The notes: generated from the letters alone by a model not told the origin. Positions 13,407 through 55,563 are shown, counted from the first letter of the stretch. The stretch: 64,000 nucleotides of DNA from an uncultured Actinomycetota bacterium (GCA_964529285.1 CAZGWK010000013.1:4468-68467); one strand, 5' to 3'. A program made the numbers and translations.

Positions 13407-14507
13407 ATGGCTCTGTGCAAGTGTAAGCAGTGTGGCCTTCCGCTGCGTTTGTCACAAGGATATATCTGGCCTGGCAACGGCGTCATACTCGCGCGCCAGG
13501 ATCCCTCCACGCGCATGGTGATATTCGAGTCCGACTATAACGTATACGTATGGAACGAACTCGAGGAGCGCCTGGGGGTGAGCATTTCGGACACCATGAT
13601 CCGCGGGCAAAAAGCCTCTAACCAGGATTATCTCGACAACCATATTCTCTACGGATGGCGCAAGTATGCGCTGCAGCACATACCCTTGCGCTTTATGTTC
13701 GAGCGCATCGCCAACGACCTGTCCCTCTTCGGGTTCGGCAGCCTCGAACTCCTCGCGTACCGCAAGAAGAAGACGCTGGTGATGAAGGTCAAGCACCCCT
13801 TCGACGTCATCTCCATAGCCTGGGGGGCCAAAGGGGTCTTCGAGCTCGCGGAGAACATGGGCTCGGAGGTGGCATGGATAACTGAAGGAGAGGAAACCAT
13901 ATTCACCATACAGTTCGTGCCCGGTAAAAAGTACACGAAGGAGACGGACCTGGAGGCGATGCGCCTGTTAAGGGATGCTAAGAGGGAGCTCTCCCTGGCA
14001 GGCAGATTGCTGCCCCCACAGGGCGACAGGGGCGAGCCCTGCCCTTCCTGCGGTCTCCCGGCCGCCCTTACGGAGCTGGAGTGGAGGGAGGATGAAGGGA
14101 CCATACGCAGAAGCGACAGCGGCAGGAGGTACATCTTCACCAGCGGGCACATCTTCCTCGCTATCATCCGCGACCTCGAGAGAAGCTCCGGCAGGGATGT
14201 TGAATCAATAATCACGCAGATAACCAGGGGTTACCATCTGCGGGGCCTCAAGGGCATCAACATCCACAGCAGAAAAGGGGCATACCGTGCGGCGGCCAGA
14301 TACCTTTTCGCCGGTGGTTTTGGCGAGGTAAAGAGATTCAACTGCGGAGAGGGGTACCTGGAGATGACCATCGTAAACCCATTCTATATACCCAGGCTGG
14401 TAGGCCGCATAGCCGGTCTCTTCGAATACGTGGAGGATCAGGAGGCGGATATCGATTACCGTCTCCCCGATGCCAATGTGCTCGAGCTGGAGATAAGGGC
14501 TACTTGA
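13407..14507 (+). CDS. Uncharacterized protein with a split zinc ribbon (N-terminal CKQCG plus a CPSCG ~200 aa downstream). Paralog of CDS 43016-44050.
   Basis: MALCKCKQCGLP at the N-terminus and CPSCGLPAALTELEWRE in the second half. CDS 43016-44050 has the same architecture and collinear motifs (CRDCGVP / CPVCGMPGELSSFRWEP). I recognise no enzymatic motif. The middle region resembles a V4R-like small-molecule-binding fold, which is speculative. Confidence 0.6.
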   Translation: MALCKCKQCGLPLRLSQGYIWPGNGVILARQDPSTRMVIFESDYNVYVWNELEERLGVSISDTMIRGQKASNQDYLDNHILYGWRKYALQHIPLRFMFERIANDLSLFGFGSLELLAYRKKKTLVMKVKHPFDVISIAWGAKGVFELAENMGSEVAWITEGEETIFTIQFVPGKKYTKETDLEAMRLLRDAKRELSLAGRLLPPQGDRGEPCPSCGLPAALTELEWREDEGTIRRSDSGRRYIFTSGHIFLAIIRDLERSSGRDVESIITQITRGYHLRGLKGINIHSRKGAYRAAARYLFAGGFGEVKRFNCGEGYLEMTIVNPFYIPRLVGRIAGLFEYVEDQEADIDYRLPDANVLELEIRAT

Positions 14508-19990: not shown

Positions 19991-20123
19991 CTTGTAACCT
20001 GAACAGGGGTGATAGAAACCAGCGGCGGCTAAGAGCAGTTTTCTTACGCTCTTGTATAATCCATCGCTCACAGTTCGTGATTTTTCACTTATATAGAGTA
20101 TGCGTAACGAGAGGAGGAGAAAG

Positions 20124-21047
20124 ATGATCATCGACTGCCACGTACATATCTGGATTCCGGGGATGGTCCCCCTGGCCTACGAGGAAGGTTGTATCCGCAC
20201 CATGGTCATGGCGGCGGGTAGGGCCCTGGGGCAGAAGTTCACCTACGAACAGGGCAAGGAGATGCTCTACCCCATGCTCCAGGACGAGAAGGGCGAGAAA
20301 TATCTTGCCCACATGGACGAGGCGGGCATCGACAAGGCGGTGCTCTTCGGGGTGGACTTTGGGGAGGAGATGGGCGAGCCGGAGATCCCCATCTTCGAGA
20401 TGAACAGGATGTACGCGGAACTTTGCAAGGCCCACCCCGACCGCTTCGTCGCCCTCTGCGCCATCGATCCGCGCCGCAAGGGCGCAATGGATCACATAGT
20501 GCAGTGCATCGAGGAATGGGGCATGAAGGGGATCAAGCTCCACCCCTCCGCCGGCTTTAACCCCATGGACCCGGTGATGTATCCCGTTTACGAGAAATGC
20601 GCGGAGTGGGACCTGCCCCTGCTCCTCCATTCCGGGGCGCAGCCGGCGGCTCCGGTGGTGCTGGAGACGGCCCGCCCCGTGTGGATCGCGGAGGCGGCGA
20701 GCAGGTTCCCGGACACCAAGTTCATCGCCGCCCACTTCGGCATGGACTGGTGGCCCGAGGCCATCATGTTCGGCAGGCTGCTGCCCAACCTTTACTTCGA
20801 CTGCTCCTACTGGCAGCTCCTCTTCGGTCTGCACGCAGAGGAGTACTACTCACTGCTGCGCCGCTTTATCGACGATTGCGGCGCGGAGAAAGTGATGTGG
20901 GGCACGGATACCCCGCTTCCCAACGTGCTCGTGCCGCCCAAGGAATGGCTGGATATCCACACCAACCCCAGGACGGATATCGCCTTCACCCCCGAAGAGA
21001 TAAAGACCATCACCGAGGCAAACGCAGCGGAGCTCTTCAAGCTCTAG
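20124..21047 (+). CDS. Amidohydrolase_2 family metal-dependent hydrolase/decarboxylase (ACMSD / LigW / LigI-like TIM barrel).
   Basis: The N-terminus MIIDCHVHIW carries the HxH metal motif and follows a GAGGAGGAG Shine-Dalgarno. Later His/Asp ligands are present (LHPS, AAHFGMDWWPE). The ORF-track start at 20100 is less likely. Confidence 0.75.
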   Translation: MIIDCHVHIWIPGMVPLAYEEGCIRTMVMAAGRALGQKFTYEQGKEMLYPMLQDEKGEKYLAHMDEAGIDKAVLFGVDFGEEMGEPEIPIFEMNRMYAELCKAHPDRFVALCAIDPRRKGAMDHIVQCIEEWGMKGIKLHPSAGFNPMDPVMYPVYEKCAEWDLPLLLHSGAQPAAPVVLETARPVWIAEAASRFPDTKFIAAHFGMDWWPEAIMFGRLLPNLYFDCSYWQLLFGLHAEEYYSLLRRFIDDCGAEKVMWGTDTPLPNVLVPPKEWLDIHTNPRTDIAFTPEEIKTITEANAAELFKL

Positions 21048-33225: not shown

Positions 33226-33906
33226 ATGCCCCACTACGATCACCGCGAGGAGGAGGCCTGGAAGGACTTCGCATTCAACTTTCCCTACGAGAAAGGCCTG
33301 CGTAGGCTGCGGGAGGAGGTCCTGGACAAGACCGACTTCGATCCCGGCGTGTTGTGGATATGGGGGACGATGCAGGCCATGGCGGTCATCCGCGTCCTCA
33401 AGGCCTGCGAGCGCGAGTTCGGGGAGGAGGGGCAGAGAGTGGTCACCGCTGCCCTGCGCGAGGTGGGCCTGGATATAGGCCGCCAGATGATGGAGGGCCT
33501 GCAGAGACCGGAGGGCATGAGTGATGCGGAGATGGCCAGCTTCTTCGCCACCGCGATAAACTGCATCGCCTACGCCTCCCTGGAGGATCCCAGCATCGAT
33601 TCCGAAGAAGAGGTGAGCTTCCATATCCTGTGGTGCCCCCACCAGGACTACTACGCCCCTTTCGACTGCCGCGTGCAGCGCTATTTCGTGCAGGGGATGC
33701 TGGAGGCGGTGAAGGAGAAGGGGATGCTGGAAGGTTGGCAGGTTCGCTTCACCCAGACCATCCCCGCCGGCGCGGAGACATGCCGCTTCGTGTTGTGGCG
33801 CGCCCCCGACGAAGAAAAGTCGCAGTGGGAGAAATACAGCGAGCAGCTGGAGGCCAAGGCCCTGGAGATCGCCGCGCAGGAAAAGGGGTCAAATCTTTAC
33901 TCTTGA
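33226..33906 (+). CDS. Hypothetical protein (226 aa).
   Basis: A clean ORF preceded by a GGGAGG Shine-Dalgarno. I recognise no family. Confidence 0.5.
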   Translation: MPHYDHREEEAWKDFAFNFPYEKGLRRLREEVLDKTDFDPGVLWIWGTMQAMAVIRVLKACEREFGEEGQRVVTAALREVGLDIGRQMMEGLQRPEGMSDAEMASFFATAINCIAYASLEDPSIDSEEEVSFHILWCPHQDYYAPFDCRVQRYFVQGMLEAVKEKGMLEGWQVRFTQTIPAGAETCRFVLWRAPDEEKSQWEKYSEQLEAKALEIAAQEKGSNLYS

Positions 33907-34081
33907 ATTTACATCCAATATATGGGAATTAATTAAAATATAGAGATGTGACATCGTGCCGGTTACACGAGGTTGGCTACACGGGATAATATTAGTGTGC
34001 GGGTGTCACGGTCCTTATATAACGTGTAATGAAATCCGGAAGAGCACTGGGAGACGTTATCTTCGCAGGGGGTGAGGTGCC

Positions 34082-34669
34082 ATGAGTAGGAAAGAGGAGC
34101 TGGTATCCGAGATACTCGAGATCGAATGGGAGATGTTCACCGCCGTGCAGGCCAAGGGGAGGAGTGCATCCTGCCAGGAAGACCCGGATTCCTTCCGCGT
34201 CATCCGCACCGCCAATTTCCTCACCTGGTCCGAGACCACACTGGCCAGCTATCTTAACGACCTGAAGATGGCCAGGGCCAAGGGCAGGAACTTCATGACC
34301 GAGAAATACGCGCGCATGGAGGGCCTTATCCCGCCGCTGAACCCCGAAGCCGGATCCCTGATCGACCGCATCGTGCGCAAAGAATGCCTGTGGGCCGAGG
34401 AGCATCTCAAGGGCACCCCGGGTGCAAGGCTGGCACGGCCCATATACTCACGTGACGACACGCCGGAGATCACTTCCTCGGAGACTTACTCCCGCGCCGA
34501 GCTGGACACGTATTCCACCAACACCCTCGACTTCTACTATGCGGACATCCTCGGTATGTCCGCGCGGGGCGAGAACCGCATAGCCCTGGCGGTAGGTTAC
34601 ATGGAGGCGATGTCCTCCGACAGGGATCTTGACTGGAGGCAGCTGCTTTCTTCCCAGGAGAACGGCTGA
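34082..34669 (+). CDS. Hypothetical protein (195 aa).
   Basis: The ORF is preceded by GGGGGTGAGG. I recognise no family. Confidence 0.5.
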   Translation: MSRKEELVSEILEIEWEMFTAVQAKGRSASCQEDPDSFRVIRTANFLTWSETTLASYLNDLKMARAKGRNFMTEKYARMEGLIPPLNPEAGSLIDRIVRKECLWAEEHLKGTPGARLARPIYSRDDTPEITSSETYSRAELDTYSTNTLDFYYADILGMSARGENRIALAVGYMEAMSSDRDLDWRQLLSSQENG

Positions 34670-38119: not shown

Positions 38120-39871
38120 ATGCGGTTGTTCGATATCATTATCGAGGATGCGCTGGTGATAGACGGCTCGGGCAGGGAGCCATACGAGGCGGACGTGGGT
38201 ATTATGGGCACCCATATAGAGAAGACAGGCGACCTGGGGGGAAGCGAGGCGGCGAAGCGGATCGACGCGGGAGGGCGCGTGGTCTGCCCGGGCATCATCG
38301 ACGTACATTCCCACGCCGACCTCACCATGTTCAAGGATGACGCCGCGGTACTTCTGCAGCCCCTGGTGAGGCAGGGCATCACCACCTTCGTGGGCGGAAA
38401 CTGCGGCATGTCGCTTGCGCCCATCACCGACGAGCACCGCGAGGGGCTCAAGACCTACCTGGAGGTCTTCACCCAGATGGACTTCGATACCGACATCCAG
38501 TGGAAGAGCATGGGCGAATTCATGGACCGCATGGACGAGAAAGGTCTTTTGCTCAACATGGCTCTCCTCGTCCCCCACGGCATGCTGCGCATCTCCGCCC
38601 TGGGAATGGAGGACAAGCCGGCGGACACGGGCGCCATAGAGATGATGAAGTGGCTGCTGGAGGAGTCCATGGAGGCGGGTGCCTTTGGGCTCTCCACCGG
38701 TCTGCAGTATTTCCCGGGGCTTTTCTCCGACACCGCCGAGCTCGTGAAACTGGCCGGGCCGCTGCAGGGATACGGCGGTATCTTCACTTCCCACTTGCGC
38801 TCCTATACCTCGTCGACCCTGGGCAAAGCCATCGACGAGATAGGGGAGGTTGCGCGGGCCAACGGCATCCGGGGCCAGGTCTCCCATATCTTCTCGGTAC
38901 CGTGGGCGGGACCGGTGCACCCCCTGGCCCTCAAGGGTCTGAAGTGGATGTGCAAGCACCCCGATTTCACCCTCAAGGTCGCCCCGGATTTTCTCCTGGA
39001 CATGTCCATGAACGTGGTGCTGAAGAGGCTGGAGAAGAACCGGAAGAACGGCGCGGACATGGCCATGGACATCATGCCCACCACCGCCGGCTTCACCCAT
39101 CTCCTCGCCTTCTTCCCGCCTTGGGTACTCGTCGGCGACCGGGAGAAGGTGCTGGCGCGCGCATACGATCCCGAGCAGCGCAAGGAGATGCTGCGCGACA
39201 TCGAGAAGGGCAAGCCCACCTGGCCCCATCGCGGGAAGAACGACTGGTCCCTGAACATCATGAGGCAGATGGGATGGGATGCCGTGACCATCATGGCCGT
39301 GCACAGCGAGAAGAACAAGCACCTGGAGGGCCGCCTTTTCACCGACATCGCCGAGGAGCAGGGCAAGCACCCCTTCGACGTCATGTGCGACCTGCTCATC
39401 GAGGAGGACGGGCAGGTGCTCGTCTTCGAGTCCATGTCCGAGCCAGACGACGCTTTCACGGAGCGCTACACCTTCCCGGCCCTGCAGGACCCCCGCACCA
39501 TGATCACCACCGACACCATCCTCATGGGGATGGGCAAGCCCTCCTACCTCTTCTACGGCTGCTATCCCAAGTTCATCGGCCGCTACGTCAACGAGAGGAA
39601 GCTGGTGGAGCTGCCCGAGGCTATCCGGCGCCTGACCTCCATGCCGGCGGAGTTCTTCGGCATCGAGAAACGCGGCCTGCTGGAGGAGGGATATTACGCC
39701 GACCTGCTGCTCATGGACGCGGACAACTTCAAGACGGAGGCGGTCTTCCGCGACCCCGAGCGCTATCCCACCGGCCTGGACACGGTGATCATCAACGGCG
39801 TCCCCGTGGTGGAGAAAGGGGAATCCGTCCCCGGCGCCCTGGCGGGAAAGATGCTGCGCAAGAATAAATAA
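38120..39871 (+). CDS. Amidohydrolase, N-acyl-D-amino-acid deacylase (D-aminoacylase)-like.
   Basis: GIIDVHSHAD (the HxH motif), GGNCGMS, ~580 aa, and a composite barrel with a C-terminal beta domain. Confidence 0.8.
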   Translation: MRLFDIIIEDALVIDGSGREPYEADVGIMGTHIEKTGDLGGSEAAKRIDAGGRVVCPGIIDVHSHADLTMFKDDAAVLLQPLVRQGITTFVGGNCGMSLAPITDEHREGLKTYLEVFTQMDFDTDIQWKSMGEFMDRMDEKGLLLNMALLVPHGMLRISALGMEDKPADTGAIEMMKWLLEESMEAGAFGLSTGLQYFPGLFSDTAELVKLAGPLQGYGGIFTSHLRSYTSSTLGKAIDEIGEVARANGIRGQVSHIFSVPWAGPVHPLALKGLKWMCKHPDFTLKVAPDFLLDMSMNVVLKRLEKNRKNGADMAMDIMPTTAGFTHLLAFFPPWVLVGDREKVLARAYDPEQRKEMLRDIEKGKPTWPHRGKNDWSLNIMRQMGWDAVTIMAVHSEKNKHLEGRLFTDIAEEQGKHPFDVMCDLLIEEDGQVLVFESMSEPDDAFTERYTFPALQDPRTMITTDTILMGMGKPSYLFYGCYPKFIGRYVNERKLVELPEAIRRLTSMPAEFFGIEKRGLLEEGYYADLLLMDADNFKTEAVFRDPERYPTGLDTVIINGVPVVEKGESVPGALAGKMLRKNK

Positions 39872-39957
39872 AGGCCCCAGTCACTGTGGGGTCACATCTT
39901 TATATTTGAAATCCCTACCATATTATGGGTGATAATTCAGAAATAAAGATCTGACCC

Positions 39958-41976
39958 TCAGCTTCCCCTCAATCTGAGATATACCTTCGGCAGTTCTACG
40001 GGAAGGTCCTCCACGCTCTTGAGCACCAGGTAGCCGTGGGGTGGGCACATGCGGCGCAGGTAGTCGTGACCGGCGGCGTCCACGGTGAGGTTGAAGGGGA
40101 TGATGTGGTCGGCCTCGGCCTCGCGCAAAGCCTGGGCGGTGTCGCGCAGGCCGTACTCGCGGTCGGTGCGGTCCTCGCCGTAGTCGAAGTCCTGGGGATA
40201 GCCGTCCGAGAGCAGCAGCATCATCTTCAGCGACGAAAGCTCGGTGTTGAGCAGGTGATGGGCGTGGCGCACCGCCGTCCCCATGCGCGTGCTCTTCAGG
40301 GGCTTCAAGGCGCCCAGGCGCTGCCAGACCGCGTCGCTCAACGGCTCGTCGAAGGACTTGATGCGCAGGAAATCCACCTTCTTGCGGCCGTAGCCGGAGA
40401 ATCCGTAGATGCCGTAGCGGTCTCCCAGCTGCTCCAGGGCCCGGGCCATGATGGCCACGCTGGCCACCAGCAGCTGCAGTACCGTCTCCCCCGCGTGGCT
40501 TCCCTCCGCGACCTCGGAAGAGGTCGAGGCGGAAAGGTCGAGCAGAAAAAGGGCGCTCACCTCGCGGGTGACGCGCCGTTTCTCCATGTATACCTTCTCG
40601 GTGGGGGGCAGCCCGCAGCGCAGCTCCACCTGGCGCTCCACCGCCGCGGCGATGTCGATCTCCTCGCCCCATTCCAGACGTTTCCTCCAGGTGCGTTCCT
40701 GCAGCCTCAACATGCGGAACTGCCTGGTCACCTCCCTTACCAGGTCGTCCCATTCATCCAGCAGGTGCTTGGCGGCTTGTGCGCTCCCTTCATCGGCCCT
40801 CAATGCATAGAGGGTCGCCCAGTCGCGGCGGTAGCCCGACGCGAGATAGTCCCACTCCGGGTAGAGTATGCGCTGCTCCTCGACTCCGGGCTCTTGCGCC
40901 TCGCCGTTATCCGCGCCATCCGCATTCGCGCTGCCGTCGGCGTCCGCAGGGGTCTCCTGCCCCAATCTCCTACCCAGGGCGTCCTCTATCAGGAACTCCC
41001 CGACTCCTGTGGGCAAGAGGTAGGAGTAGAAGTCCAGGCCCAATGCCTCGGCCAACTCCGGCGGCACCAGCGCCATACCCTCTTCCTCTTCCTCCTCCCT
41101 GCCGAAACGGGTGGCCCTGTTCCCGCGCAGGCCGGGCATGGTATCGGTGAAGAAATCGTCGAGTCCCTCCAGCATAATGCGCTCCCCGGGCATGAGGGAG
41201 GACTTCAGCATGGGCTCCAGGACGGCGTAGATAGCCAGGGTCGCGTTGAGGCTGTCCTTGAGGCCGGCGCCGGGAAGGACTGCCGCCTCGGCCGCGTCCA
41301 TTATCTCGCGCGGGTAACCGCCCTGCGCCGCGCTGCCGCTAAGCGTAGCGAGCAGGTCGAAGAAGAGGTTCCAGAGCATGGCGGAGTGGTCCACGGGCTC
41401 GATGTTCGGCCCCAGGCGGGCGAGGAACCACGCAAGGTCCGATGCCAGACCGCCGAAGAGCCTGGCCATGGCGGAGGATACGCGCGCCGTCTCCAGGGTG
41501 ATGAAGATATCCGCGGCCAGGAAAGGCATGGGAAACTTTCCCAGGAAATAACGCAGGAAGGCCATGGGTTCCTTCCTGTCCATCCAGGCCTGCCGCCCGT
41601 GACGGCCTGCCGCTTCGTCCGCGCGCGGGCGATCGAAGGTGCCCGCCTCCCATTGTCCCGCCTGCAGCGAGGTATAGAGGCGGAAGGCTCTCCAGTTATC
41701 CTCGCGGGAAGCGAAGACGTCGAGGTAAGGGGGGAGATATATCTCCCTGCCGTTACTGAAGGGGAAGGCACGGCGGGGGTTGGCGAGGATCGCGGGGGCA
41801 TCCCCCAGCGATTTCGCCTGCAGGTACTTCTCGCTCAAGCCCTTTCCGAAGAGAGAGAAAGACGCCCGGGCTTCCTCCAGGGTTACCACCATGCGGGACG
41901 CCTCGTCGCCTGAGTCCAACATGGCCTCGTCCAGGAGGGAACAGGTGTAGATGGATATGTTCAGCGAAGAGGTCAC
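39958..41976 (-). CDS. von Willebrand factor A domain protein, CbbO/NorD/CoxE-like partner of the upstream AAA ATPase.
   Basis: A C-terminal VWA with MIDAS-like residues (LLLSDGYPQDFDYGED...). It is large (672 aa) and lies directly downstream (31 nt) of a CbbQ/NorQ ATPase gene. It starts at a GTG. Confidence 0.7.
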   Translation of the reverse strand: MTSSLNISIYTCSLLDEAMLDSGDEASRMVVTLEEARASFSLFGKGLSEKYLQAKSLGDAPAILANPRRAFPFSNGREIYLPPYLDVFASREDNWRAFRLYTSLQAGQWEAGTFDRPRADEAAGRHGRQAWMDRKEPMAFLRYFLGKFPMPFLAADIFITLETARVSSAMARLFGGLASDLAWFLARLGPNIEPVDHSAMLWNLFFDLLATLSGSAAQGGYPREIMDAAEAAVLPGAGLKDSLNATLAIYAVLEPMLKSSLMPGERIMLEGLDDFFTDTMPGLRGNRATRFGREEEEEEGMALVPPELAEALGLDFYSYLLPTGVGEFLIEDALGRRLGQETPADADGSANADGADNGEAQEPGVEEQRILYPEWDYLASGYRRDWATLYALRADEGSAQAAKHLLDEWDDLVREVTRQFRMLRLQERTWRKRLEWGEEIDIAAAVERQVELRCGLPPTEKVYMEKRRVTREVSALFLLDLSASTSSEVAEGSHAGETVLQLLVASVAIMARALEQLGDRYGIYGFSGYGRKKVDFLRIKSFDEPLSDAVWQRLGALKPLKSTRMGTAVRHAHHLLNTELSSLKMMLLLSDGYPQDFDYGEDRTDREYGLRDTAQALREAEADHIIPFNLTVDAAGHDYLRRMCPPHGYLVLKSVEDLPVELPKVYLRLRGS

Positions 41977-42007
41977 CGTGAACCTGCCTTATGTCTCGCT
42001 CGCTCTC

Positions 42008-42856
42008 TCAGGGAAAGACCGCGGCCACCAGGTCGCGCATGGCCTGCTGCATGACCGGGTCGTCGGATACCGCCGAGACCACCGCCGTCTCGCAGGAGCG
42101 CCTTGCTCCGACCCCCTGCCCGATGAGCCTGGCGGCATAGATGAGCAGCCGCGTGGAAGGGCCTTCCTCGAGCTCCTTCTCTCCCAGGTTGCGTGCTTTC
42201 TCCCCCAGCAGTGCGAGCTGTTGCGCCACATTATCACTTACGCCGCCCTCTCCCGCGATGATGCGGGCCTCAACCGCGCGCGCGGGATAGGAGAAATCGA
42301 TGGCCGCGAAGCGCTGGCGGGTGCTTATCTTGAGGTCCTTGAGCATGCTCTGGTAACCGGGGTTGTAGGAGACCACCAGCAGGAAACGCGGGTGGGCGCG
42401 GATGAAGCCGCCTTTCTTCTCCAGCGGCAGGATGCGCCGGTGATCGGCCAGGGGATGGATGAGCACCATGGTGTCCTTGCGGGCTTCGACCACCTCGTCC
42501 AGGTAGCATATGGCTCCCGTCTTCACCGCCGCGGTGAGGGGGCCGTCCACCCATACCGTCTCGTCCCCACGCAACAGGTAGCGTCCGACCAGGTCCCCTG
42601 CGGTGAGATCCTCGTGACAGGCGACGGTGATGAGCGGCAGCTTGAATCCACCCTCGTCCCCCAGCAGCCAGGACATGTATTCGAGGAAGCGGGTCTTGCC
42701 GCAGCCGGTGGGGCCTTTGAGGTTCACGGGAAGGCAGGCGTGATAAGCTGCGCGGAAGGTCTCCACCTCGTCGCCGGTGGGGATGTAGAAGGGCTCCTCC
42801 TCGAAGACGTGTTCCTCGTAGGGTATCTCCCTGCTGACGCTGGTGACTTCTTTCAC
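42008..42856 (-). CDS. CbbQ/NirQ/NorQ/GvpN-family MoxR-type AAA+ ATPase.
   Basis: Walker A LKGPTGCGKTRFLEYM, Walker B CYLDEV, and a characteristic CbbQ C-terminal region (ARLIGQGV...). Confidence 0.8.
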   Translation of the reverse strand: MKEVTSVSREIPYEEHVFEEEPFYIPTGDEVETFRAAYHACLPVNLKGPTGCGKTRFLEYMSWLLGDEGGFKLPLITVACHEDLTAGDLVGRYLLRGDETVWVDGPLTAAVKTGAICYLDEVVEARKDTMVLIHPLADHRRILPLEKKGGFIRAHPRFLLVVSYNPGYQSMLKDLKISTRQRFAAIDFSYPARAVEARIIAGEGGVSDNVAQQLALLGEKARNLGEKELEEGPSTRLLIYAARLIGQGVGARRSCETAVVSAVSDDPVMQQAMRDLVAAVFP

Positions 42857-43015
42857 GTGATTAACTCCTTGACCGTCACGCCCGACCTCGCCGCCATCGC
42901 CGGCGGGTTCGCTGTCAAGGATTATTCTAGCAGAGTTTGTTTATTGACCCCGCAGCAGTGCAGAGGAAACCACGTCCGCGCAGGGTTTTCAGCGTAAAAG
43001 TCCGGGGACGGTGGA

Positions 43016-44050
43016 TCAGGGCACGGCACCGCCTACCTTGACCCTGATTATCCCCTCTGCGGGACTGTCCCAGCTCCAGACAGGATGGTTACCGCCGCAC
43101 ACGGCAGCGACTATGCCGGCCAGTATGGGCCCGTTGAAGCCGTTGCGGATCCTCACGCCTTCCTCGAGTTCCAGCGGCGTGGGAGCCTCGATCTCCGGGA
43201 TCCCTATTCCCCGCAGCTTCAGGAAAGCGAGGTCGCAGAAGACCCCGGGGTGCTCTTCTTTCATGCGGCGGAAGAACTTCCAGGTCAGATCCGCGACAAG
43301 TCCGGGTATCTCCTCGCCCAGCTCGAACTCCAGTTCTCTCAATACGGCGTCGAGAGCGCGGGTGCCCTGGATGAACATCCACTCTCCCGTCCTGCCGTCG
43401 AACATCCTGCCCGTCTCCGGCTCCCACCTGAAACTGGAGAGCTCCCCGGGCATGCCGCAGACCGGGCATCTTTCATAATGTGCATGGGCGTCAATGACCG
43501 GACTTTCCTGCAGCCGCAGCCTCTGTTCATCCTCTCTATCTTCAGAGGCCTTGACACTGACGAAGAACTCCTGCCCGAAAAACCCGCAATCCATACTGGC
43601 CCTCAGCCCCTCGAAGTTCTCGAAGGCGCCCCAGGCGTCGCCCGCGAAGAGGGCGTGATAATACACGGGGTCTATCCTGCCTATCAGCCTTTCACCCTTG
43701 CGGTGTTCCAGCAGTTTGACCTTTCCCAGCCCTATCAGGGCGGCCTGTGCGACCATGGCGTAGTATGCGAACCGCCTCAACGGGGGCAAACGCAGCAGTC
43801 TTCCCAGCAGCGGCGGCAGGACGTCCTGCACGTAGGCGAAGGCATCCCTACGTTTCGCCTCGGTGATGATCTTGTCGATGGGAAACCCGAGCTTCTCCTC
43901 GATGCCCAGGAAGATCTCCACCATGTGTTCGCGTTCCATCATGATCAGGCGGACCAGCTTCCGGGGCATGGAGAGCAGTATGCCGTCGTCCGTCCATTTG
44001 TTGCTGAAACTGAAAAGCCTCGGAACTCCGCAATCCCTGCACCTCAGCAT
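43016..44050 (-). CDS. Uncharacterized split-zinc-ribbon protein, paralog of CDS 13407-14507.
   Basis: MLRCRDCGVPRLF at the N-terminus and CPVCGMPGELSSFRWEPETG ~200 aa later. It is collinear with the 13407 protein (CKQCGLP / CPSCGLPAALTELEWRED). Confidence 0.6.
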   Translation of the reverse strand: MLRCRDCGVPRLFSFSNKWTDDGILLSMPRKLVRLIMMEREHMVEIFLGIEEKLGFPIDKIITEAKRRDAFAYVQDVLPPLLGRLLRLPPLRRFAYYAMVAQAALIGLGKVKLLEHRKGERLIGRIDPVYYHALFAGDAWGAFENFEGLRASMDCGFFGQEFFVSVKASEDREDEQRLRLQESPVIDAHAHYERCPVCGMPGELSSFRWEPETGRMFDGRTGEWMFIQGTRALDAVLRELEFELGEEIPGLVADLTWKFFRRMKEEHPGVFCDLAFLKLRGIGIPEIEAPTPLELEEGVRIRNGFNGPILAGIVAAVCGGNHPVWSWDSPAEGIIRVKVGGAVP

Positions 44051-44218
44051 AGTATTCCTCCAGCACGCCGGTTCTCGAGCACGCCCCTAACATTACCTTC
44101 GGTATTATTCGCGGGATGTATTAGAGCTCGACGCTCCGATCACGACGTCGTAACCGCCGTGGGCGTGGTCACGCAGGCGCGCGCCCGCCATAAATGTCGC
44201 CGCCGCCCGCGTGCCCTT

Positions 44219-45865
44219 CTAAACGGACGGAGGGGGATCCGACCATGTCCTGTCCTTGATCAGCTCCAGCAACCTCGAGAGTTTGCTTTCCTCCACGGCC
44301 GAGAGGTCGAAATCCGCCTCTCCCGTGTAGAACCCCGCATCGGCTGCTTCTCCCGGGTCCAGGGCATTCCGGATCTTGCGCTGCCAGTGGTTGTAGTTGC
44401 CCTGCATGGGGCCGAAGAGTTTGCGCATGCGCGGGTCGAAATTGAAACCCTGCTCCATGCACTGCTCGATGGCGGTTATGGCGAAATCGACGCTCAGCGG
44501 GTCTATGGCCTCGGTATGCGAGCGGTTGCGCGGGTCGTAGGCGAAGATCTCCTCGCAGTGCGCGTAGGCGCTGTTTTCGTAGAGGGTCATCCAGGCGCAG
44601 TCGCCCATGTCATCCAGTATGCCCCCCCTCTCTATCCATTCCTCCTTGGTCTTCTGGCTGAACTCCGCGTAGTCGACCAGCTCGTCCCAGGTCTCGTCCT
44701 TGGGCCATCCCGTGGAGAACTGCCCCCCGGGACGGTAGATGAGGGGTATTATGGTAACCCGCAGGAAATTCATCCAGAACATGGACCCCATGGCGGGGAT
44801 GCCATGAAAAAGCTCCAGGCCCATGCCGGCGTGCTCGGAGAGCACCCGCTTGAGCACCTTCTCCTGGTAGGCCATCTCGCTTTCGGAATCGCATGCCAGA
44901 ACCACCATGAGGAGGTACTTGAGGGAATCTCTTAAGACCGCCCTCAGGGCATGCTTACCGGGGAGCTTTTTCAGGAAGTGGGGCAGGATGTTAAGGAGAT
45001 AACCGGCAATCGAGGCCTTGGTGACCACGTATCCGATCTCGGCTTCGCCCAGTTTATACCCCGCGTCCGCGAACGTCTCCTTGGTGGGGAAAAAGCACAG
45101 GAAGAACTTGAGCTCGTCGGGCACCTCCGCGGCATAGTCCAGCAGCATCCCGCTGCCCTCGCTGGACGGTGGCCCCGGCCAGTGGAAGAGCTTCAGCGCG
45201 CAGCGCGTGAACACCCCGTTACCCCCCATGGCCCCCACGTACCCCCGCATTATCCCCCGCAGGGAGGGGCCCGGGCCGTCCCCGTTGAACCACCCCATAC
45301 CTGATCCCAGGCTACCCAGTTCGAGGATCTCTCCATCGGGCAGCACCCACTCGACTCCGAGGAGGTTGCGCGGGCTGTAGCTCATGTACTGGCCGTCCCA
45401 TCCCACTCCCCAGCACGACGTGGCGCTGGCCAGCGGCGAGCAGGCGGGACCGGCACCGATGATGTGGGTGTTGAGCCCGAGCTTCATGGCCTCGGCCTGG
45501 AGTTGCGCGCCGGATACGTAAGGCTCGACCACCGCGTACATGTTCCTCTCGTCTATCTCCAGGATGCGGTTCATCCGCCTCAAGTCGATCTGTACCACGC
45601 CGCCTTCCGTCGGGCCGCCGTGGGCCCCCCAGCCGGTGCTGAACGCCTTGAACTTCAGCCCGTGTTCGTTGCATATCCTCACCACGGCTTGCACTTCCGG
45701 GGTAGTGGAGGGCAGGGCCACGGCCGCGGGTCGCGGCACCCAGATGTCGGGATCGGTGTTGAATGAAGGCTGCCAGGCATAGCCGTCGAGCACCGCGGGT
45801 TCCCTGGAGACGTTTTCCTGCCCCAGGGCTTCTTCCAGTTCCCTGTACGCTTGCGCGGGGATCAC
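44219..45865 (-). CDS. FAD-linked oxidase (PCMH/VAO-type FAD_binding_4 family, glycolate oxidase/D-lactate dehydrogenase-like).
   Basis: The N-terminal FAD-binding domain ALPSTTPEVQAVVRICNEHGLKF...STGWGAHGG, ~550 aa, and a C-terminal substrate domain. Confidence 0.8.
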   Translation of the reverse strand: MIPAQAYRELEEALGQENVSREPAVLDGYAWQPSFNTDPDIWVPRPAAVALPSTTPEVQAVVRICNEHGLKFKAFSTGWGAHGGPTEGGVVQIDLRRMNRILEIDERNMYAVVEPYVSGAQLQAEAMKLGLNTHIIGAGPACSPLASATSCWGVGWDGQYMSYSPRNLLGVEWVLPDGEILELGSLGSGMGWFNGDGPGPSLRGIMRGYVGAMGGNGVFTRCALKLFHWPGPPSSEGSGMLLDYAAEVPDELKFFLCFFPTKETFADAGYKLGEAEIGYVVTKASIAGYLLNILPHFLKKLPGKHALRAVLRDSLKYLLMVVLACDSESEMAYQEKVLKRVLSEHAGMGLELFHGIPAMGSMFWMNFLRVTIIPLIYRPGGQFSTGWPKDETWDELVDYAEFSQKTKEEWIERGGILDDMGDCAWMTLYENSAYAHCEEIFAYDPRNRSHTEAIDPLSVDFAITAIEQCMEQGFNFDPRMRKLFGPMQGNYNHWQRKIRNALDPGEAADAGFYTGEADFDLSAVEESKLSRLLELIKDRTWSDPPPSV

Positions 45866-46219
45866 CGTGTATGCCCTCCCTGCACTATGCCGAAGCCTTC
45901 CCGTCGGGAAGCCTATTCTGCTGACAGCCTCACCATCATTGATATTCTACCATTTTCGGCGGCGCTTGCCTGACAACGTCGCGAGGCGTTCCGCCGGCCC
46001 TGTTCCGGTCTCGGGGCGTATGGGCGTATTGCTCCGGGCTCGGGCGCTTCCTTGCTCCCCGCTATATTGCAGTCTGCTCATCCCGTTTGTGGTCTCATAC
46101 CCCGGGGGCGGGATATAATCTTTGCAGGCAAGAAGGCTTTTACCAGCGAGCTCGCACGCAGCTGTGAGCATACCTACGCGGAGCGGGGCTTTCCCGCCCG
46201 CGAGTAGAGGAAGGAGTAC

Positions 46220-51467: not shown

Positions 51468-52523
51468 TCAGGCCAGGCCGCGTTCCTGCAGTATCCTCGC
51501 GTTCATCTCCACCATGTTCGCGGGCGGCACCACGGCGTCTACCTTGGGTACCATCTCTATGGCGTCCGCCGGGCAGGTGGGTACGCACAACCCGCACCCG
51601 ATACACCTGGCCGTGTCCACATCCATGTATTCGTCTCCCTCGACGATAGCGTCGATCTGGCAGCGGTCCAGGCAGGTGCCGCATGCGGTACATTCATCCG
51701 CATCTATCACGGCCCTGTAGGTGGACTGCACCTCGTCGGCCGGCCTCTCCATGGTGGAGAGCCCCCGCAGCATGCCGCAGCAGCAGCTGCAGCAGCAGCA
51801 GATGTTCACGAAGTTCTGGGCGTTGCTGGGTGAGAGCACCAGCGCGGCCTCCTCGGCCTCGTCCAGGATCTCCAGGCATTCCTCGAGGCTTATCTTGCGA
51901 CCGATGCCGTTCTCGGCGTAGTAGTCAGCGGCGAAACCGAAGACCAGGCAGGTCTCCAGGGGGCGTTCGCACTCGCGCCCCAGGAGACCGCGCTCCACGC
52001 GGCAGATACAGTCCGCCACGGCAAATTTGTCCTGACCTTTCACCATCTCCCGGACGCGGTCGTAGGTCGCGACCTCCTTGCCTGCCTCCACTGCCGTCTC
52101 CACCGGGACCACCCTAAGCTGTTTTGTCTTTCCGCCGCTCCAGGATTCCGTCAGGTGGGGCAGGTATTCGTCGAGCAGCTCGGCCAGCTCACGGTCCATG
52201 CTCTTGAGGTGAAACTCGTATATGCCGACGAGGAAGGACATGGCCATGTACATGGTTTGCTCGCCCGCCCTGATCCTGAAGATCGACCCCTGACCGGACA
52301 TGGACTCCAGCATCTCTGCCGCCTTGGCCTCGTCCATGCCGGCGCGCTCCGCGATGGCTGCCGCCGTCTCCGGAAAGATATTAAGGTGCATCTGGAGTTC
52401 CGCTTCCTCCGGGGTGAAATACCGCGCGAGCAGCTTCAGTTCCACCCCGCTCTCGGTGGAGGGAAATCCACCCGGCAGACCGTCCATGAACTCCCGCAGC
52501 CTCACATAAACATCCTCCGCCAT
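51468..52523 (-). CDS. Cys-rich iron-sulfur protein, paralog 1 of 3. N-terminal helical domain, a Cx(6-7)C...CCCCxCCC block, and a C-terminal 2x[4Fe-4S] ferredoxin domain.
   Basis: The start is MAEDVYVRLREF (ATG at 52523, with AAGGAG 5 nt upstream), not the longer ORF-track start. Motifs are CICRVERGLLGREC, NICCCCSCCCG, CTACGTCLDRCQ and CIGCGLCVPTCP. Confidence 0.7.
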   Translation of the reverse strand: MAEDVYVRLREFMDGLPGGFPSTESGVELKLLARYFTPEEAELQMHLNIFPETAAAIAERAGMDEAKAAEMLESMSGQGSIFRIRAGEQTMYMAMSFLVGIYEFHLKSMDRELAELLDEYLPHLTESWSGGKTKQLRVVPVETAVEAGKEVATYDRVREMVKGQDKFAVADCICRVERGLLGRECERPLETCLVFGFAADYYAENGIGRKISLEECLEILDEAEEAALVLSPSNAQNFVNICCCCSCCCGMLRGLSTMERPADEVQSTYRAVIDADECTACGTCLDRCQIDAIVEGDEYMDVDTARCIGCGLCVPTCPADAIEMVPKVDAVVPPANMVEMNARILQERGLA

Positions 52524-52540
52524 GCTCGCTCCTTTCACCC

Positions 52541-53626
52541 CTAGGGTTTGATGACCTCCATGAACGCCTCCAGCTTGCCCTTCTCCTGCAGGATCTTCAT
52601 GCCCATCTCGGAGGTGGTCAGCGGGGGTTCCGCGTACTCGTCCGTCTTCACCAGCCGCAGGGCTCCCTCGGGGCAGCCGCTGACGCACAAGCCGCACCCT
52701 ATACAGCGTTCTCGCTTCACTACCGCCGTCCCGTTAGATACCTCTATGGCCTGCACCGGGCACCTCTCGTCGGCGCAGATCCCGCACCCCGTACACAGCT
52801 CCTCATCGACCAGCGGTGTAAAACCTGAGGAGGTGAAGACTGGGGGGTTGCCCCATTGCGTGCTCATGCGCAGCAGGCCGCAGCAGCAGGTGCAGCAGTT
52901 GCACACGAAGGTCAGGTGCTCCTGCACGTTGTTGATCTGGTGCACCAGCCCGGCCTCGTCGAACTCCCTGAGCTTCTCCTTCATCTCCTCCTTGGTTATA
53001 TAGCGGCCGAAGCCCCGCTCCACCAGGTAGGTACAGGTCTCGTCGAAGAGCATGCAGGCTTCAAGCGGGTTGTCGCAGTTCCTCTCCATGTCGCGGCAGG
53101 CGCAGGTGCCGATGCCCACCACCCTGGCCTTGTCGATCATCTCGTAGACCTTCTGGTAGGGGAGCACCCCCGGCTCGCTATCCACTTCCTCCTGTATGGG
53201 GATGATGCGGGAGAACCGGGTGTCGGTGCCGCCGAAACCCCTGCCGAGCTTGGGCAGGTAGCTTTTCCACAGCGGGGTGAGCCTGGCCCTCATCTCGTCT
53301 GACATCCCCTTCATGTAGGGGAACTCGAAGAGGCCCGGCATCACGGGAAGCAGGGCGTAGCTGCGCTTACCTTCCTTTTCGCGCACAAAGACCACGGCCT
53401 TGTCCGCGAGTGACTCGAGGCAGCGTTCCGCCGTCTTCTCGTCCACGCCGGCGCGGCGCGTCACGTCCTCCACGCTGAAGGGCCTGAATCCGAGGCCTAA
53501 AGCCACTTCTGCCTCCTCCTGCGTGAAGAATATCTTGAGGATCTTTATGATCTCGGGCGCGGGCTGGCAGCCGGTGGGGTGGCGGTCCAGCAGTTCCCGC
53601 AGCTGCTCGTATACATCTTCCGGCAT
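52541..53626 (-). CDS. Cys-rich iron-sulfur protein, paralog 2 of 3.
   Basis: The start is MPEDVYEQLREL (ATG at 53626, with GAGGAG 6 nt upstream). Motifs are CACRDMERNC, FVCNCCTCCCG, CTGCGICADERCP and CIGCGLCVSGCP. Confidence 0.7.
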   Translation of the reverse strand: MPEDVYEQLRELLDRHPTGCQPAPEIIKILKIFFTQEEAEVALGLGFRPFSVEDVTRRAGVDEKTAERCLESLADKAVVFVREKEGKRSYALLPVMPGLFEFPYMKGMSDEMRARLTPLWKSYLPKLGRGFGGTDTRFSRIIPIQEEVDSEPGVLPYQKVYEMIDKARVVGIGTCACRDMERNCDNPLEACMLFDETCTYLVERGFGRYITKEEMKEKLREFDEAGLVHQINNVQEHLTFVCNCCTCCCGLLRMSTQWGNPPVFTSSGFTPLVDEELCTGCGICADERCPVQAIEVSNGTAVVKRERCIGCGLCVSGCPEGALRLVKTDEYAEPPLTTSEMGMKILQEKGKLEAFMEVIKP

Positions 53627-53696
53627 ATGCATCTCCTCTTCCATGCACTCGTTGTTTTCAGGAATGCAATATTTAAATTAAATGTGTTGTTGGATG

Positions 53697-54752
53697 CTAC
53701 TGCGTCTGGCCGACTATGAACTCCTCCAGGGTGGGGACTCCCTTGGGCGCCTCACGGCGCTCCAGGGTCAAAGCCTCTCCGGAGCAGGTGGGGATGCACA
53801 CCCCGCACCCAAGGCACAGGTCCTCGTCTACCTGGGCGATCTCCTCGTCGTCAAGCTTAATGGCCTCCACCGGGCAGCGTTCCTCGCAGGTGCCGCACCC
53901 GATACATAATTCCTCATCCACCCGTGGTACGTAGCTGGAAGGGGCCATGGCATTCGCATAACCCAACTGCTTCCTGGTCTGGATGAAAGCGCAGCAGCAG
54001 CCGCAGCAGCAGCAGATGGTGGAGACCTTGCCCTGGTAGTTGTCGGTGGAGAACACCAGCCCCTCCTCGTGGGCATCCTCCAGCTTCTCGAGGGTCTCCT
54101 CCAGGGTCAATTCCCTGCCCATGCCCTGCTCCACGATATAACGTCCCATGGAGCCGAAGTGGAAGCAGTTCTCCCGCTCGTGCTCGCATCCCTCACCCGC
54201 ATAGGCCCTTATCTGTCGGCAGGGGCAGTAGGCCACCGCCCGGTAGTCGACCTCCTCCACCAGGTTTCGAACCGTCTCATAGGGGAGCACCTGCGATTCG
54301 GAGGCGATCTCCTCCTGCACGGGCACAGCTCTCAACAAGGGGACCTTTCTGCCGCCGACCTCTTCAGCGAAAGCGGATCTGAAGTACTTGTTCCAGAGCG
54401 GGGCAAGTCTGCGCACTATCTCGTTGTCCTTGCCCGGCCAGAAGGGCGTCTCGGAGAAGCCCACTACGGTGGGGAGCAGGCGGTATTTCGACTCCGCTCC
54501 CTTCACTCTTTTGAATACGGTGCCCTTGGAGGCCATGGTGTCCAGCATTCCCTCCAGTTCCTCGGCGGGCATGCCAACCGTCCCGGAGAGCTCCTCCAGG
54601 GCCGTGTTCATGAAGGGAAGCTTGACTGCCAGTTCCGCCTCCTCGGGAGTGAACAAGATGCGCAGTATGTCCATCAACTCGTCGCTCATGGGAGCCCCGA
54701 TGGGCATCTCGTCCAGGTGCTGGGCCAGCGCTTCGTACACATCGTCCGACAT
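53697..54752 (-). CDS. Cys-rich iron-sulfur protein, paralog 3 of 3.
   Basis: The start is MSDDVYEALAQHL. Motifs are CPCRQIRAYAGEGC, ICCCCGCCCA, CIGCGTCEERCP and CLGCGVCIPTCS. Confidence 0.7.
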   Translation of the reverse strand: MSDDVYEALAQHLDEMPIGAPMSDELMDILRILFTPEEAELAVKLPFMNTALEELSGTVGMPAEELEGMLDTMASKGTVFKRVKGAESKYRLLPTVVGFSETPFWPGKDNEIVRRLAPLWNKYFRSAFAEEVGGRKVPLLRAVPVQEEIASESQVLPYETVRNLVEEVDYRAVAYCPCRQIRAYAGEGCEHERENCFHFGSMGRYIVEQGMGRELTLEETLEKLEDAHEEGLVFSTDNYQGKVSTICCCCGCCCAFIQTRKQLGYANAMAPSSYVPRVDEELCIGCGTCEERCPVEAIKLDDEEIAQVDEDLCLGCGVCIPTCSGEALTLERREAPKGVPTLEEFIVGQTQ

Positions 54753-54779: not shown

Positions 54780-55412
54780 CTATGACCGTTCCTTAGTCTC
54801 CGCGAACTGCTTGAGGATGAGCGTGATGCTGTTGCGCATGGGTGCGGGGTCGTGGGTGACCTTGCTGATCATGATCCCGCCCTCCAGGGCGCTGATGGCG
54901 AAATCAGCGTACCTTGCGCAGTCGAAGTCGGGCGGCAGCTCTCCCGCTGCTTTCATCTCCTCCAATCCGGAAGCGATGATTCCCGACCAGTCGCGGAAGG
55001 CCCTGGCGAGTCGCTCGCGGAAGCCCTCGCTCAGGTTGCTGGTCTCCAGCGCCAGGTTGCCCAGGATGCATCCGCGGGTGCATTCGGCCTCCTCGACGAT
55101 GCCCTGTATGCCCTTGAGCATGGCCTCGATGCGCTGGTAGGGGGACAGTTCCGGAAGGTCGAGGACCTTTTTCAGGCTGTCCATGATATGAGCGGAGGCA
55201 TTCTCGATCACCGCGTATCCCAACTCCTCCTTGGACGAGAAATGAAAGTAGAAGCTTCCCTTGGTGACCCCGGCTGCCTCTATGACGTTGTCGATGGTCG
55301 TCTTGGCATAGCCCTTCTCGTACATGAGGAGAGTGGCGTAGCCTACGATGCGCCGTCGCGTCTTCTCTCCCTTGGATACTGTCGTCTTTGTACTGGACAA
55401 ATCAATCTCCAT
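54780..55412 (-). CDS. TetR-family transcriptional regulator, first gene of the Fe-S protein operon.
   Basis: The HTH YAKTTIDNVIEAAGVTKGSFYFHF. The candidate operator overlaps its own promoter. Confidence 0.8.
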   Translation of the reverse strand: MEIDLSSTKTTVSKGEKTRRRIVGYATLLMYEKGYAKTTIDNVIEAAGVTKGSFYFHFSSKEELGYAVIENASAHIMDSLKKVLDLPELSPYQRIEAMLKGIQGIVEEAECTRGCILGNLALETSNLSEGFRERLARAFRDWSGIIASGLEEMKAAGELPPDFDCARYADFAISALEGGIMISKVTHDPAPMRNSITLILKQFAETKERS

Positions 55413-55432: not shown

Positions 55433-55563
55433 ATAATTATTTTAGCAGCCGCTTTCTTCCTGTCAAGCAAGATTGAGAGGCTTGATCGGGAGGGCGGTGT
55501 CCGCTCGGCCTTTGCAGGCAAGGCAAAAGCTATTTCGAGAAGTGCGGGAAACGAATGGATCGC

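Follow-up and report, generated by a model that had tools for sequence, protein, structure and literature searches.

Neighbourhood and candidate clients of a CbbQ/NorQ-VWA chaperone pair beside a VAO-type flavoprotein gene in an uncultured Actinomycetota genome

The question raised by a four-gene block in an uncultured Actinomycetota bacterium is whether a chaperone pair of the MoxR-VWA type serves the flavoprotein encoded next to it, or whether the two merely share a stretch of chromosome. The block lies in a 64,000-nt stretch of DNA (GCA_964529285.1, CAZGWK010000013.1:4468-68467), the whole of which is called the window below. It comprises four open reading frames (ORFs), all on the minus strand and separated by gaps of 168, 159 and 31 nt, which encode a 548-aa flavoprotein (FAD4) of the vanillyl-alcohol oxidase (VAO)/p-cresol methylhydroxylase (PCMH) superfamily (44219-45865), a 344-aa protein with two CxxCG knuckles, here named P3 (43016-44050), a 282-aa MoxR AAA+ ATPase of the CbbQ/NorQ subfamily (42008-42856, here CbbQ) and a NorD/CbbO-like VWA protein (39958-41976). 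MoxR-VWA pairs are widespread and, to our knowledge, clients are known for only a handful of them (cNOR, Rubisco, the Mo-Cu CO dehydrogenase and Frd/Nuo). The first-pass annotation of this DNA had placed the four ORFs, their strand and their spacing correctly, its domain calls (FAD_binding_4, CbbQ/NorQ ATPase, NorD-like VWA and two CxxCG knuckles) were also right, and its view of the ATPase and VWA protein as a chaperone of NorQD/CbbQO type is borne out here. It had further proposed that the genes form one operon, in which the pair activates the flavoprotein or the zinc-ribbon protein P3. We favour another reading, with a probability of about 0.6, in which the block sets side by side two or more modules with promoters of their own and is not a dedicated four-gene system. 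The CbbQ-VWA pair is a lineage-wide orphan chaperone pair of the NorQD/CbbQO type, and no client was identified within the window.

Gene neighbourhood and promoter-like elements

Homologues were recovered almost exclusively from metagenome-assembled genomes (MAGs) labelled Actinomycetota, Candidatus Geothermincolia or "Candidatus Solincola", the last of which is a genus within Geothermincolales. A scan from the VWA side that took a single genome for each species gave 35 loci, of which 17 were from Actinomycetota and had full-length orthologues at 55-83% identity; after the addition of a metagenome locus (L048) and two further look-ups, and with identical loci counted once, 19 distinct loci were compared. 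The sole invariant unit over these 19 Geothermincolales loci is CbbQ together with VWA. The flavoprotein gene stands directly upstream of CbbQ in four of them (the window, L005/L014, L006/L007 and L015), in all of which the VWA protein is at least 80% identical to that of the window, and it is absent from 14, with no call possible for one.

The common backbone of these loci begins with SDR, TetR, two or three paralogues that join a winged helix-turn-helix (wHTH) to a ferredoxin, and NMO genes, continues with AMP-ligase, DUF169 and Amidohydro_2 genes on the opposite strand, and then reaches CbbQ and VWA (and, in some loci, a distant P3 paralogue called P3b), after which Amidohydro_3, Metallophos and MFS genes follow, again on the opposite strand. 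In the window, EamA, CN_hydrolase, flavoprotein and P3 genes stand in place of DUF169 and Amidohydro_2. Judged by gene order, the CbbQ-VWA module keeps one chromosomal position across the Geothermincolales, and the flavoprotein-P3 module is best read as having arrived only in the nearest relatives of the window. The distribution of P3 follows its divergence: at 73% identity or more, in close relatives, the order is flavoprotein, P3, CbbQ and VWA within window-like flanks; at about 60% identity (L003/L004 and L012) it is flavoprotein, P3 and MFS without CbbQ or VWA; and at 47% identity or less P3 is single or tandemly duplicated and has no flavoprotein gene beside it. Within Candidatus Solincola quzhuomuensis (JACVJF), the flavoprotein-P3-MFS set is on contig049 (L012) and CbbQ-VWA is on other contigs (L026 and L043). 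The first module would consist of the VAO/PCMH-fold flavoprotein and P3, which also occur as a pair with no adjoining chaperone.

Transcription signals point in the same direction. The window and 12 related loci have an extended -10 element, (c)TGnTA(G/A)AATA, at a distance of 60-90 nt upstream of the CbbQ start, and it is kept whether the gene upstream is P3, the flavoprotein, Amidohydro_2, DUF169 or AMP-ligase. The copy in the window, TGCTAGAATA (42923-42932, minus strand), lies 67-76 nt upstream of the CbbQ start codon, and a second promoter-like element, TGGTAGAATA (45943-45952, minus strand), lies 78-87 nt upstream of the flavoprotein start codon; elements similar to the latter precede the flavoprotein gene in L006 and L015. 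The motif TGNTAGAATA has two matches in the 64-kb window against 0.16 expected, one before CbbQ and the other before the flavoprotein. Because a conserved extended -10 element precedes CbbQ as well as the flavoprotein, the evidence favours at least two promoters in the four-gene block, and a single operon is unproven; of the operon first proposed, the common direction of the genes therefore stands, and the single transcription unit is not confirmed.

Several points weigh against the two-module reading. Neither the fold z-score (0.3) nor the terminator scan gave a convincing terminator between P3 and CbbQ, so that read-through from the flavoprotein promoter is possible, and the promoter elements themselves are consensus matches backed by conservation rather than mapped transcription starts. 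The synteny data are also compatible with a pair that acts in trans on the flavoprotein. Moreover, the loci all belong to a single order of uncultured Actinomycetota, the conserved gene order of which weakens every neighbourhood argument, the one from P3b included.

The CbbQ/NorQ ATPase and its VWA partner

Family and structure-database matches place the ATPase in the CbbQ/NorQ subfamily of MoxR AAA+ ATPases. Both AAA_5 (E 7.6e-27) and CbbQ_C (E 6.3e-27) were matched in Pfam, matches to PDB sequences include CbbQ (5c3c, E 4e-97) and NorQ (9qh4, E 6e-88), and Walker A (GPTGCGKT, residues 48-55, 42692-42715) and Walker B (CYLDE, residues 117-121, 42494-42508) are intact. [quoted passage not shown] One public gene call begins this protein 18 codons further downstream. 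NCBIfam contributed no specific name to these assignments.

Comparison with characterized systems places the pair closest to the motor and adaptor of known chaperones without assigning it to any of their clients. It shares with NorQ-NorD, which inserts the non-haem FeB into cNOR, a CbbQ_C-type ATPase and a partner in which a disordered acidic linker joins an N-terminal domain to a MIDAS-bearing VWA domain at the C-terminus; the C-terminal ~310 aa of this partner are 32% identical to NorD. It differs in its N-terminal domain, which does not align with that of NorD (BLASTP against annotated NorD, P0379, covered residues 360-669 only, and the phmmer match of the N-terminal stretch was insignificant), in the lack of norC and norB from the window, and in its host, an uncultured actinomycete that encodes the Wood-Ljungdahl pathway. 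Pfam families of haem-copper oxidases and NOR were found neither among the scanned window ORFs nor in the related loci. With CbbQ-CbbO, the Rubisco activase, it has in common an ATPase as similar to CbbQ (5c3c) as to NorQ and a large VWA protein as adaptor, but Rubisco families were not found among the Pfam matches of window ORFs. The metal-centre maturation logic of a MoxR ATPase with a VWA protein is also that of CoxD-CoxE-CoxF, which matures the Mo-Cu CO dehydrogenase, but the ATPase there is of another MoxR subfamily, the VWA_CoxE match here reaches 15.8 bits, below the cut-off, and cox genes were not found in the window.

According to Kahle et al. (PMC9976466), NorD and CbbO differ in their N-terminal domains, which are unrelated and have different binding targets; the N-terminal domain of the VWA protein, being distinct from that of NorD, therefore implies a distinct client. 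This domain aligns with orphan VWA proteins of ~1000 aa from other phyla. Outgroup CbbQ-VWA loci at 30-44% identity (Proteobacteria, Desulfobacterota and Binatia) have housekeeping neighbours and no visible client, on locus maps drawn with a codon-usage gene caller that is unreliable for outgroup phyla.

The second module would consist of a hexameric CbbQ/NorQ AAA+ motor and a NorD-like VWA adaptor. NorQD inserts non-haem iron (PMC9976466, PMC13036017), and a "finger" of the NorD VWA domain enters the ATPase pore (PMC13036017). If the present pair works as NorQD and CbbQO do, the MIDAS face of the VWA protein would bind an acidic residue of the client, and ATP hydrolysis would remodel the client so that a metal centre is inserted or reset. 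In uncultured anaerobic Actinomycetota the CbbQ-VWA pair is an orphan that is well conserved across an order; that MoxR-VWA chaperones gain a new client class with this Geothermincolales pair is a further, speculative proposition, and we would sooner doubt it than adopt it.

Candidate clients

The best local candidate for a partner of the pair is the P3-family Cys4 protein, and a Ni/Fe-S client encoded elsewhere, for example CO dehydrogenase/acetyl-CoA synthase (CODH/ACS), is an equally possible candidate. The two widely separated half-ribbons described at first sight in P3 are present, namely CRDCG at residues 4-8 (44027-44041, minus strand), conserved in alignments A1 and A2, and the rubredoxin-like CPxCG knuckle CPVCG at residues 195-199 (43454-43468, minus strand), invariant in A2. 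No Pfam or NCBIfam family matched P3. Its close homologues number 31 among 5.8 billion proteins, and a profile search extended these to 379 representatives of a wider superfamily of ~350-aa proteins, in which no Pfam domain was found and V4R was not matched even at E up to 5; a search of PDB sequences with the superfamily profile returned knuckle-level noise only (rubrerythrin and L37e, E at least 0.03). The N-terminal and C-terminal halves of P3 match each other with a probability of 99.9 (hhalign, E 9e-33), from which an internal duplication of a module with a CxxCG knuckle and a putatively V4R-like domain follows. Cys 4, 7, 195 and 198 are the only conserved potential metal ligands across the superfamily (alignment A2), and both knuckles are kept in 117 of the 125 full-length representatives. 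Because no other ligand is conserved, we infer that these four residues form one split Cys4 metal site bridging the repeats. The superfamily, an undescribed family of ~380 clusters at 50% identity, would be one of tandem V4R-like proteins with a split Cys4 site.

Structure prediction, which had been suggested as a means of assigning a fold to P3, gave an AlphaFold2 (AF2) model with a predicted local distance difference test score (pLDDT) of 85 and a predicted template-modelling score (pTM) of 0.87. The best PDB folds were the phenol-sensor domains of PoxR and MopR, followed by H-NOX and Bet3, all of them weak in Foldseek (E 7e-3 to 3e-2, target-normalized template-modelling score (TMt) 0.55-0.62), and a ligand-binding fold of V4R/H-NOX type is hence proposed with the reserve that these E-values impose. 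Each half of P3 finds its best structural match in the V4R/MopR-PoxR phenol-sensor domains (also H-NOX and Bet3), all of which are alpha/beta ligand-binding folds. MopR and PoxR phenol-sensor domains carry structural zinc. P3 differs from them in the weak Foldseek significance (~1e-2), in the lack of a Pfam V4R match, and in its architecture, a tandem duplicate that stands alone, carries its CxxCG knuckles N-terminally and lacks an output domain.

This genome has an expanded set of the family: a further paralogue of 366 aa without a Pfam match (E 3e-29 to P3b in tblastn) lies on the plus strand at 13407-14507, remote from CbbQ-VWA. In metagenomes, P3b-like genes form tandem arrays of two to four paralogues, often beside gltX, mfd, pth, rplY or glpK (L053, L057, L065, L067, L068 and L088). 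What surrounds these distant genes is mixed or of housekeeping type (GltX, Mfd, Pth, L25 and GlpK), and it points to no enzyme partner. The metagenome scan for P3b used the narrow P3b alignment A4, the superfamily alignments A2 and A3 being too diverse.

A P3-family protein, P3 in the window or P3b in relatives, may serve the pair as client or as substrate adaptor, though we propose this tentatively and incline against it. A NorQD-like motor would in that case load or exchange the metal of the split Cys4 site, or open the V4R-like pockets, and NorQD offers a precedent in its insertion of non-haem iron (PMC9976466, PMC13036017). P3b, which is 27-30% identical to P3 and ~357 aa long, follows VWA in L006/7, L015, L016, L017, L019, L045 and L048. 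Of the 19 loci, 9 have a P3-family gene immediately beside CbbQ-VWA, 3 more have one within ~8 kb, 5 have none, and 2 gave no call; where both flanks of a backbone-type locus are visible, at least one such gene is kept (9/9). P3 is present where P3b is missing (the window and L005 have P3 only), L015 has flavoprotein, CbbQ, VWA and P3b without P3, and L006/7 has both. The Cys4 site is moreover conserved in the 117 of 125 family representatives given above. Against this, not one of ~40 metagenome P3b-like loci of at least 5 kb (34-55% identity) has CbbQ or VWA, these genes occurring instead in the arrays beside housekeeping genes, and P3 clades B and C have no adjacent CbbQ or VWA either. The VWA-to-P3b spacers (~90-150 nt) contain -10-like hexamers, five CbbQ-VWA loci have no P3-family gene in their available flanks, the window has its other paralogue far from the pair, and the supporting loci are related to one another. 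The earlier suggestion of the zinc-ribbon protein as partner is thus weakly supported by the flanking genes in nine loci and opposed by the metagenome loci.

Less likely, and in our view improbable though among the leading candidates, is a client in trans: a Ni/Fe-S enzyme from the Wood-Ljungdahl pathway (CODH/ACS), or some metalloenzyme related to it, on which the pair would act jointly with insertases of the CooC/AcsF type. The deepest-branching loci, from Candidatus S. sediminis (L115, equal to L024; VWA 56% identical) and L113/L114 (50%), contain a tight four-gene operon of CdhC-like, CooC-like, CbbQ and VWA genes (L115 7697-11890 and L113 1-4216), its genes spaced by 1, 43 and -4 nt. The CdhC-like protein, of 232 aa, matches only residues ~19-173 of the acetyl-CoA synthase beta subunit, that is, the middle-domain region of ACS (E 1e-11), and the CooC/AcsF-like protein is an ATPase of the MinD type that has GKGGVGKT and, as its CXC motif, GCYC. 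Downstream of this operon in L115 and L113, on the opposite strand, there is a cluster with a PocR histidine kinase, a GerE regulator and BcrAD/HGD-D (benzoyl-CoA-reductase/dehydratase-like) genes. In L025 (12021-13841), a ZnuA-type metal-binding protein and an ABC ATPase are encoded on the same strand, 26 nt after VWA. The neighbours of CbbQ-VWA across the clade are therefore metal-themed (CooC-like, ZnuA-ABC and the Cys4 P3 family), and the deep-branching operon hints at metal-centre maturation of a client encoded elsewhere; as the CooC-like Ni insertase, ZnuA-ABC and the unannotated Cys4 family are three independent clues of this kind, the client question is a testable one.

Ca. Solincola has been reported to encode the Wood-Ljungdahl pathway (PMC12917137), which is in keeping with a CODH/ACS client, but the CooC-linked arrangement occurs in two genomes only, and CODH/ACS, CooC, NOR and Rubisco genes were not found in the 64-kb window by Pfam on the scanned ORFs. 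The deep-branching pairs are putative orthologues and may instead be paralogues. In the literature searched, no role of MoxR-VWA in the maturation of Ni-CODH/ACS was found, and searches on V4R with CbbQ, CooC with MoxR/VWA, and Solincola or Geothermincolia metabolism returned nothing that links these parts.

The proposal that all four genes form one operon, with CbbQ-VWA as an ATP-dependent activase or cofactor-insertion system for the flavoprotein, has become very unlikely. In its favour, the genes are adjacent and co-directional, the arrangement is kept in four related genomes, and no strong terminator separates P3 from CbbQ. The synteny test went the other way, with 14 of 19 orthologous CbbQ-VWA loci devoid of the flavoprotein gene, the flavoprotein-P3 unit unlinked from the pair in Ca. 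S. quzhuomuensis, close flavoprotein homologues in unrelated contexts, and a conserved promoter-like element of its own before CbbQ. Since the pair is lineage-wide and carries this element, and has the flavoprotein beside it solely in the nearest relatives, that protein is probably not the client; the activase claim is unsupported and should not be passed on. Flavinylation in the VAO family is autocatalytic where it has been studied, which also counts against a need for such an activase.

As for the flavoprotein itself, its FAD_binding_4 domain was matched at E 2.8e-22 in Pfam, and PDB sequence matches are restricted to this N-terminal FAD domain. An AF2 model built on 37 homologues (pLDDT 79) matched full-length 4-phenol oxidases, PCMH and D-lactate dehydrogenase (D-LDH) in Foldseek at E ~1e-22 and template-modelling (TM) scores of 0.70-0.76; the query-normalized score (TMq) was 0.70-0.72 for 4-ethylphenol oxidase, vanillyl-alcohol dehydrogenase and PCMH, and ~0.62 for D-lactate dehydrogenase. 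Because these matches span the full length, the label "VAO-type" is right at the level of the fold, with no subfamily assigned. The protein shares the FAD_binding_4 domain and the whole-protein fold with VAO/PCMH 4-phenol oxidases and with D-2-hydroxyacid dehydrogenases, but identity to the structural matches is 17-20%, and the cap domain here matches no Pfam model. Published genomic analyses of "Ca. Solincola" (PMC12917137) suggest that the organism is an anaerobe, and for this reason the flavoprotein is probably a dehydrogenase rather than an oxidase.

The flavoprotein family is large (2960 matches), with many ~55%-identical paralogues in Actinomycetota MAGs. Of two homologues at 55-58% identity, one follows the genes for pyruvate kinase (pyk) and enolase (eno), and the other, 58% identical (L111 2826-11669), lies amid genes for electron-transfer flavoprotein (ETF) alpha/beta and for GlcD-like, GlcF-like (CCG) and FixC-/FixX-like proteins; CbbQ or VWA is near neither of them. 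The L111 cluster suggests that some members of the family are electron-bifurcating or ETF-linked dehydrogenases of the 2-hydroxyacid type. In two of the loci with a flavoprotein-P3-MFS unit (L003 13092-17219 and L004 6872-10630), a second flavoprotein paralogue at 46% identity is followed by genes for a B12-binding protein and a URO-D-type methyltransferase, a set that constitutes a corrinoid methyltransferase (O-demethylase-like) module near that unit.

A neighbouring metallohydrolase, either Amidohydro_3 or Metallophos downstream or, in relatives, Amidohydro_2 upstream, is just as improbable a client as the flavoprotein. The convergent D-aminoacylase-like amidohydrolase seen beyond the cluster at the outset is indeed there, as an Amidohydro_3 gene on the plus strand (38120-39871; Pfam, NCBIfam), most backbone loci keep the order Amidohydro_3, Metallophos and MFS beside the pair, and many have Amidohydro_2 with DUF169 upstream in divergent orientation. 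Nevertheless, the hydrolase genes are convergent or divergent to the pair and are absent from the deep-branching loci and from L021-L023, and the window has no DUF169 and a sole Amidohydro_2-like gene ~22 kb away (20100-21047). The pattern fits inherited gene order, and the Amidohydro_3 gene is part of the conserved chromosomal backbone (Amidohydro_3, Metallophos and MFS), not demonstrably of the system. A role in conflict or anti-phage defence is scarcely credible, since, although some conflict systems reportedly contain MoxR-VWA pairs (PMC7159879), PADLOC gave no match for any of the four proteins, the ATPase is of the CbbQ/NorQ subfamily (CbbQ_C; E 4e-97 to CbbQ), and the chromosomal position is stable across an order.

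Further features of the window

Between the VWA gene and the convergent amidohydrolase gene there is a terminator-like hairpin (39873-39893), called on both strands, and apart from this hairpin 3' of the VWA gene a generic promoter and terminator scan was uninformative. Rfam matched tRNA alone in the window. On the plus strand at 33226-34669, an ATC_hydrolase-like gene is followed by a DUF4125 gene, a pair that is kept in the backbone of several related loci.

Three tandem paralogues of ~350-409 aa are encoded on the minus strand at 51468-54752, in each of which a TrmB/DUF7342-like winged helix at the N-terminus is followed by a 2x[4Fe-4S] ferredoxin domain at the C-terminus, and it may be asked whether these wHTH-ferredoxin proteins are redox-sensing regulators or enzymes. 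They are adjoined by a TetR gene (54780-55412), an SDR gene and an NMO-like gene, a set common to Solincola-like loci. An extended -10-like element, TGCTAAAAT (55439-55447, minus strand), lies 27 nt upstream of the TetR gene start, a position that is consistent with this motif class marking promoters in this organism.

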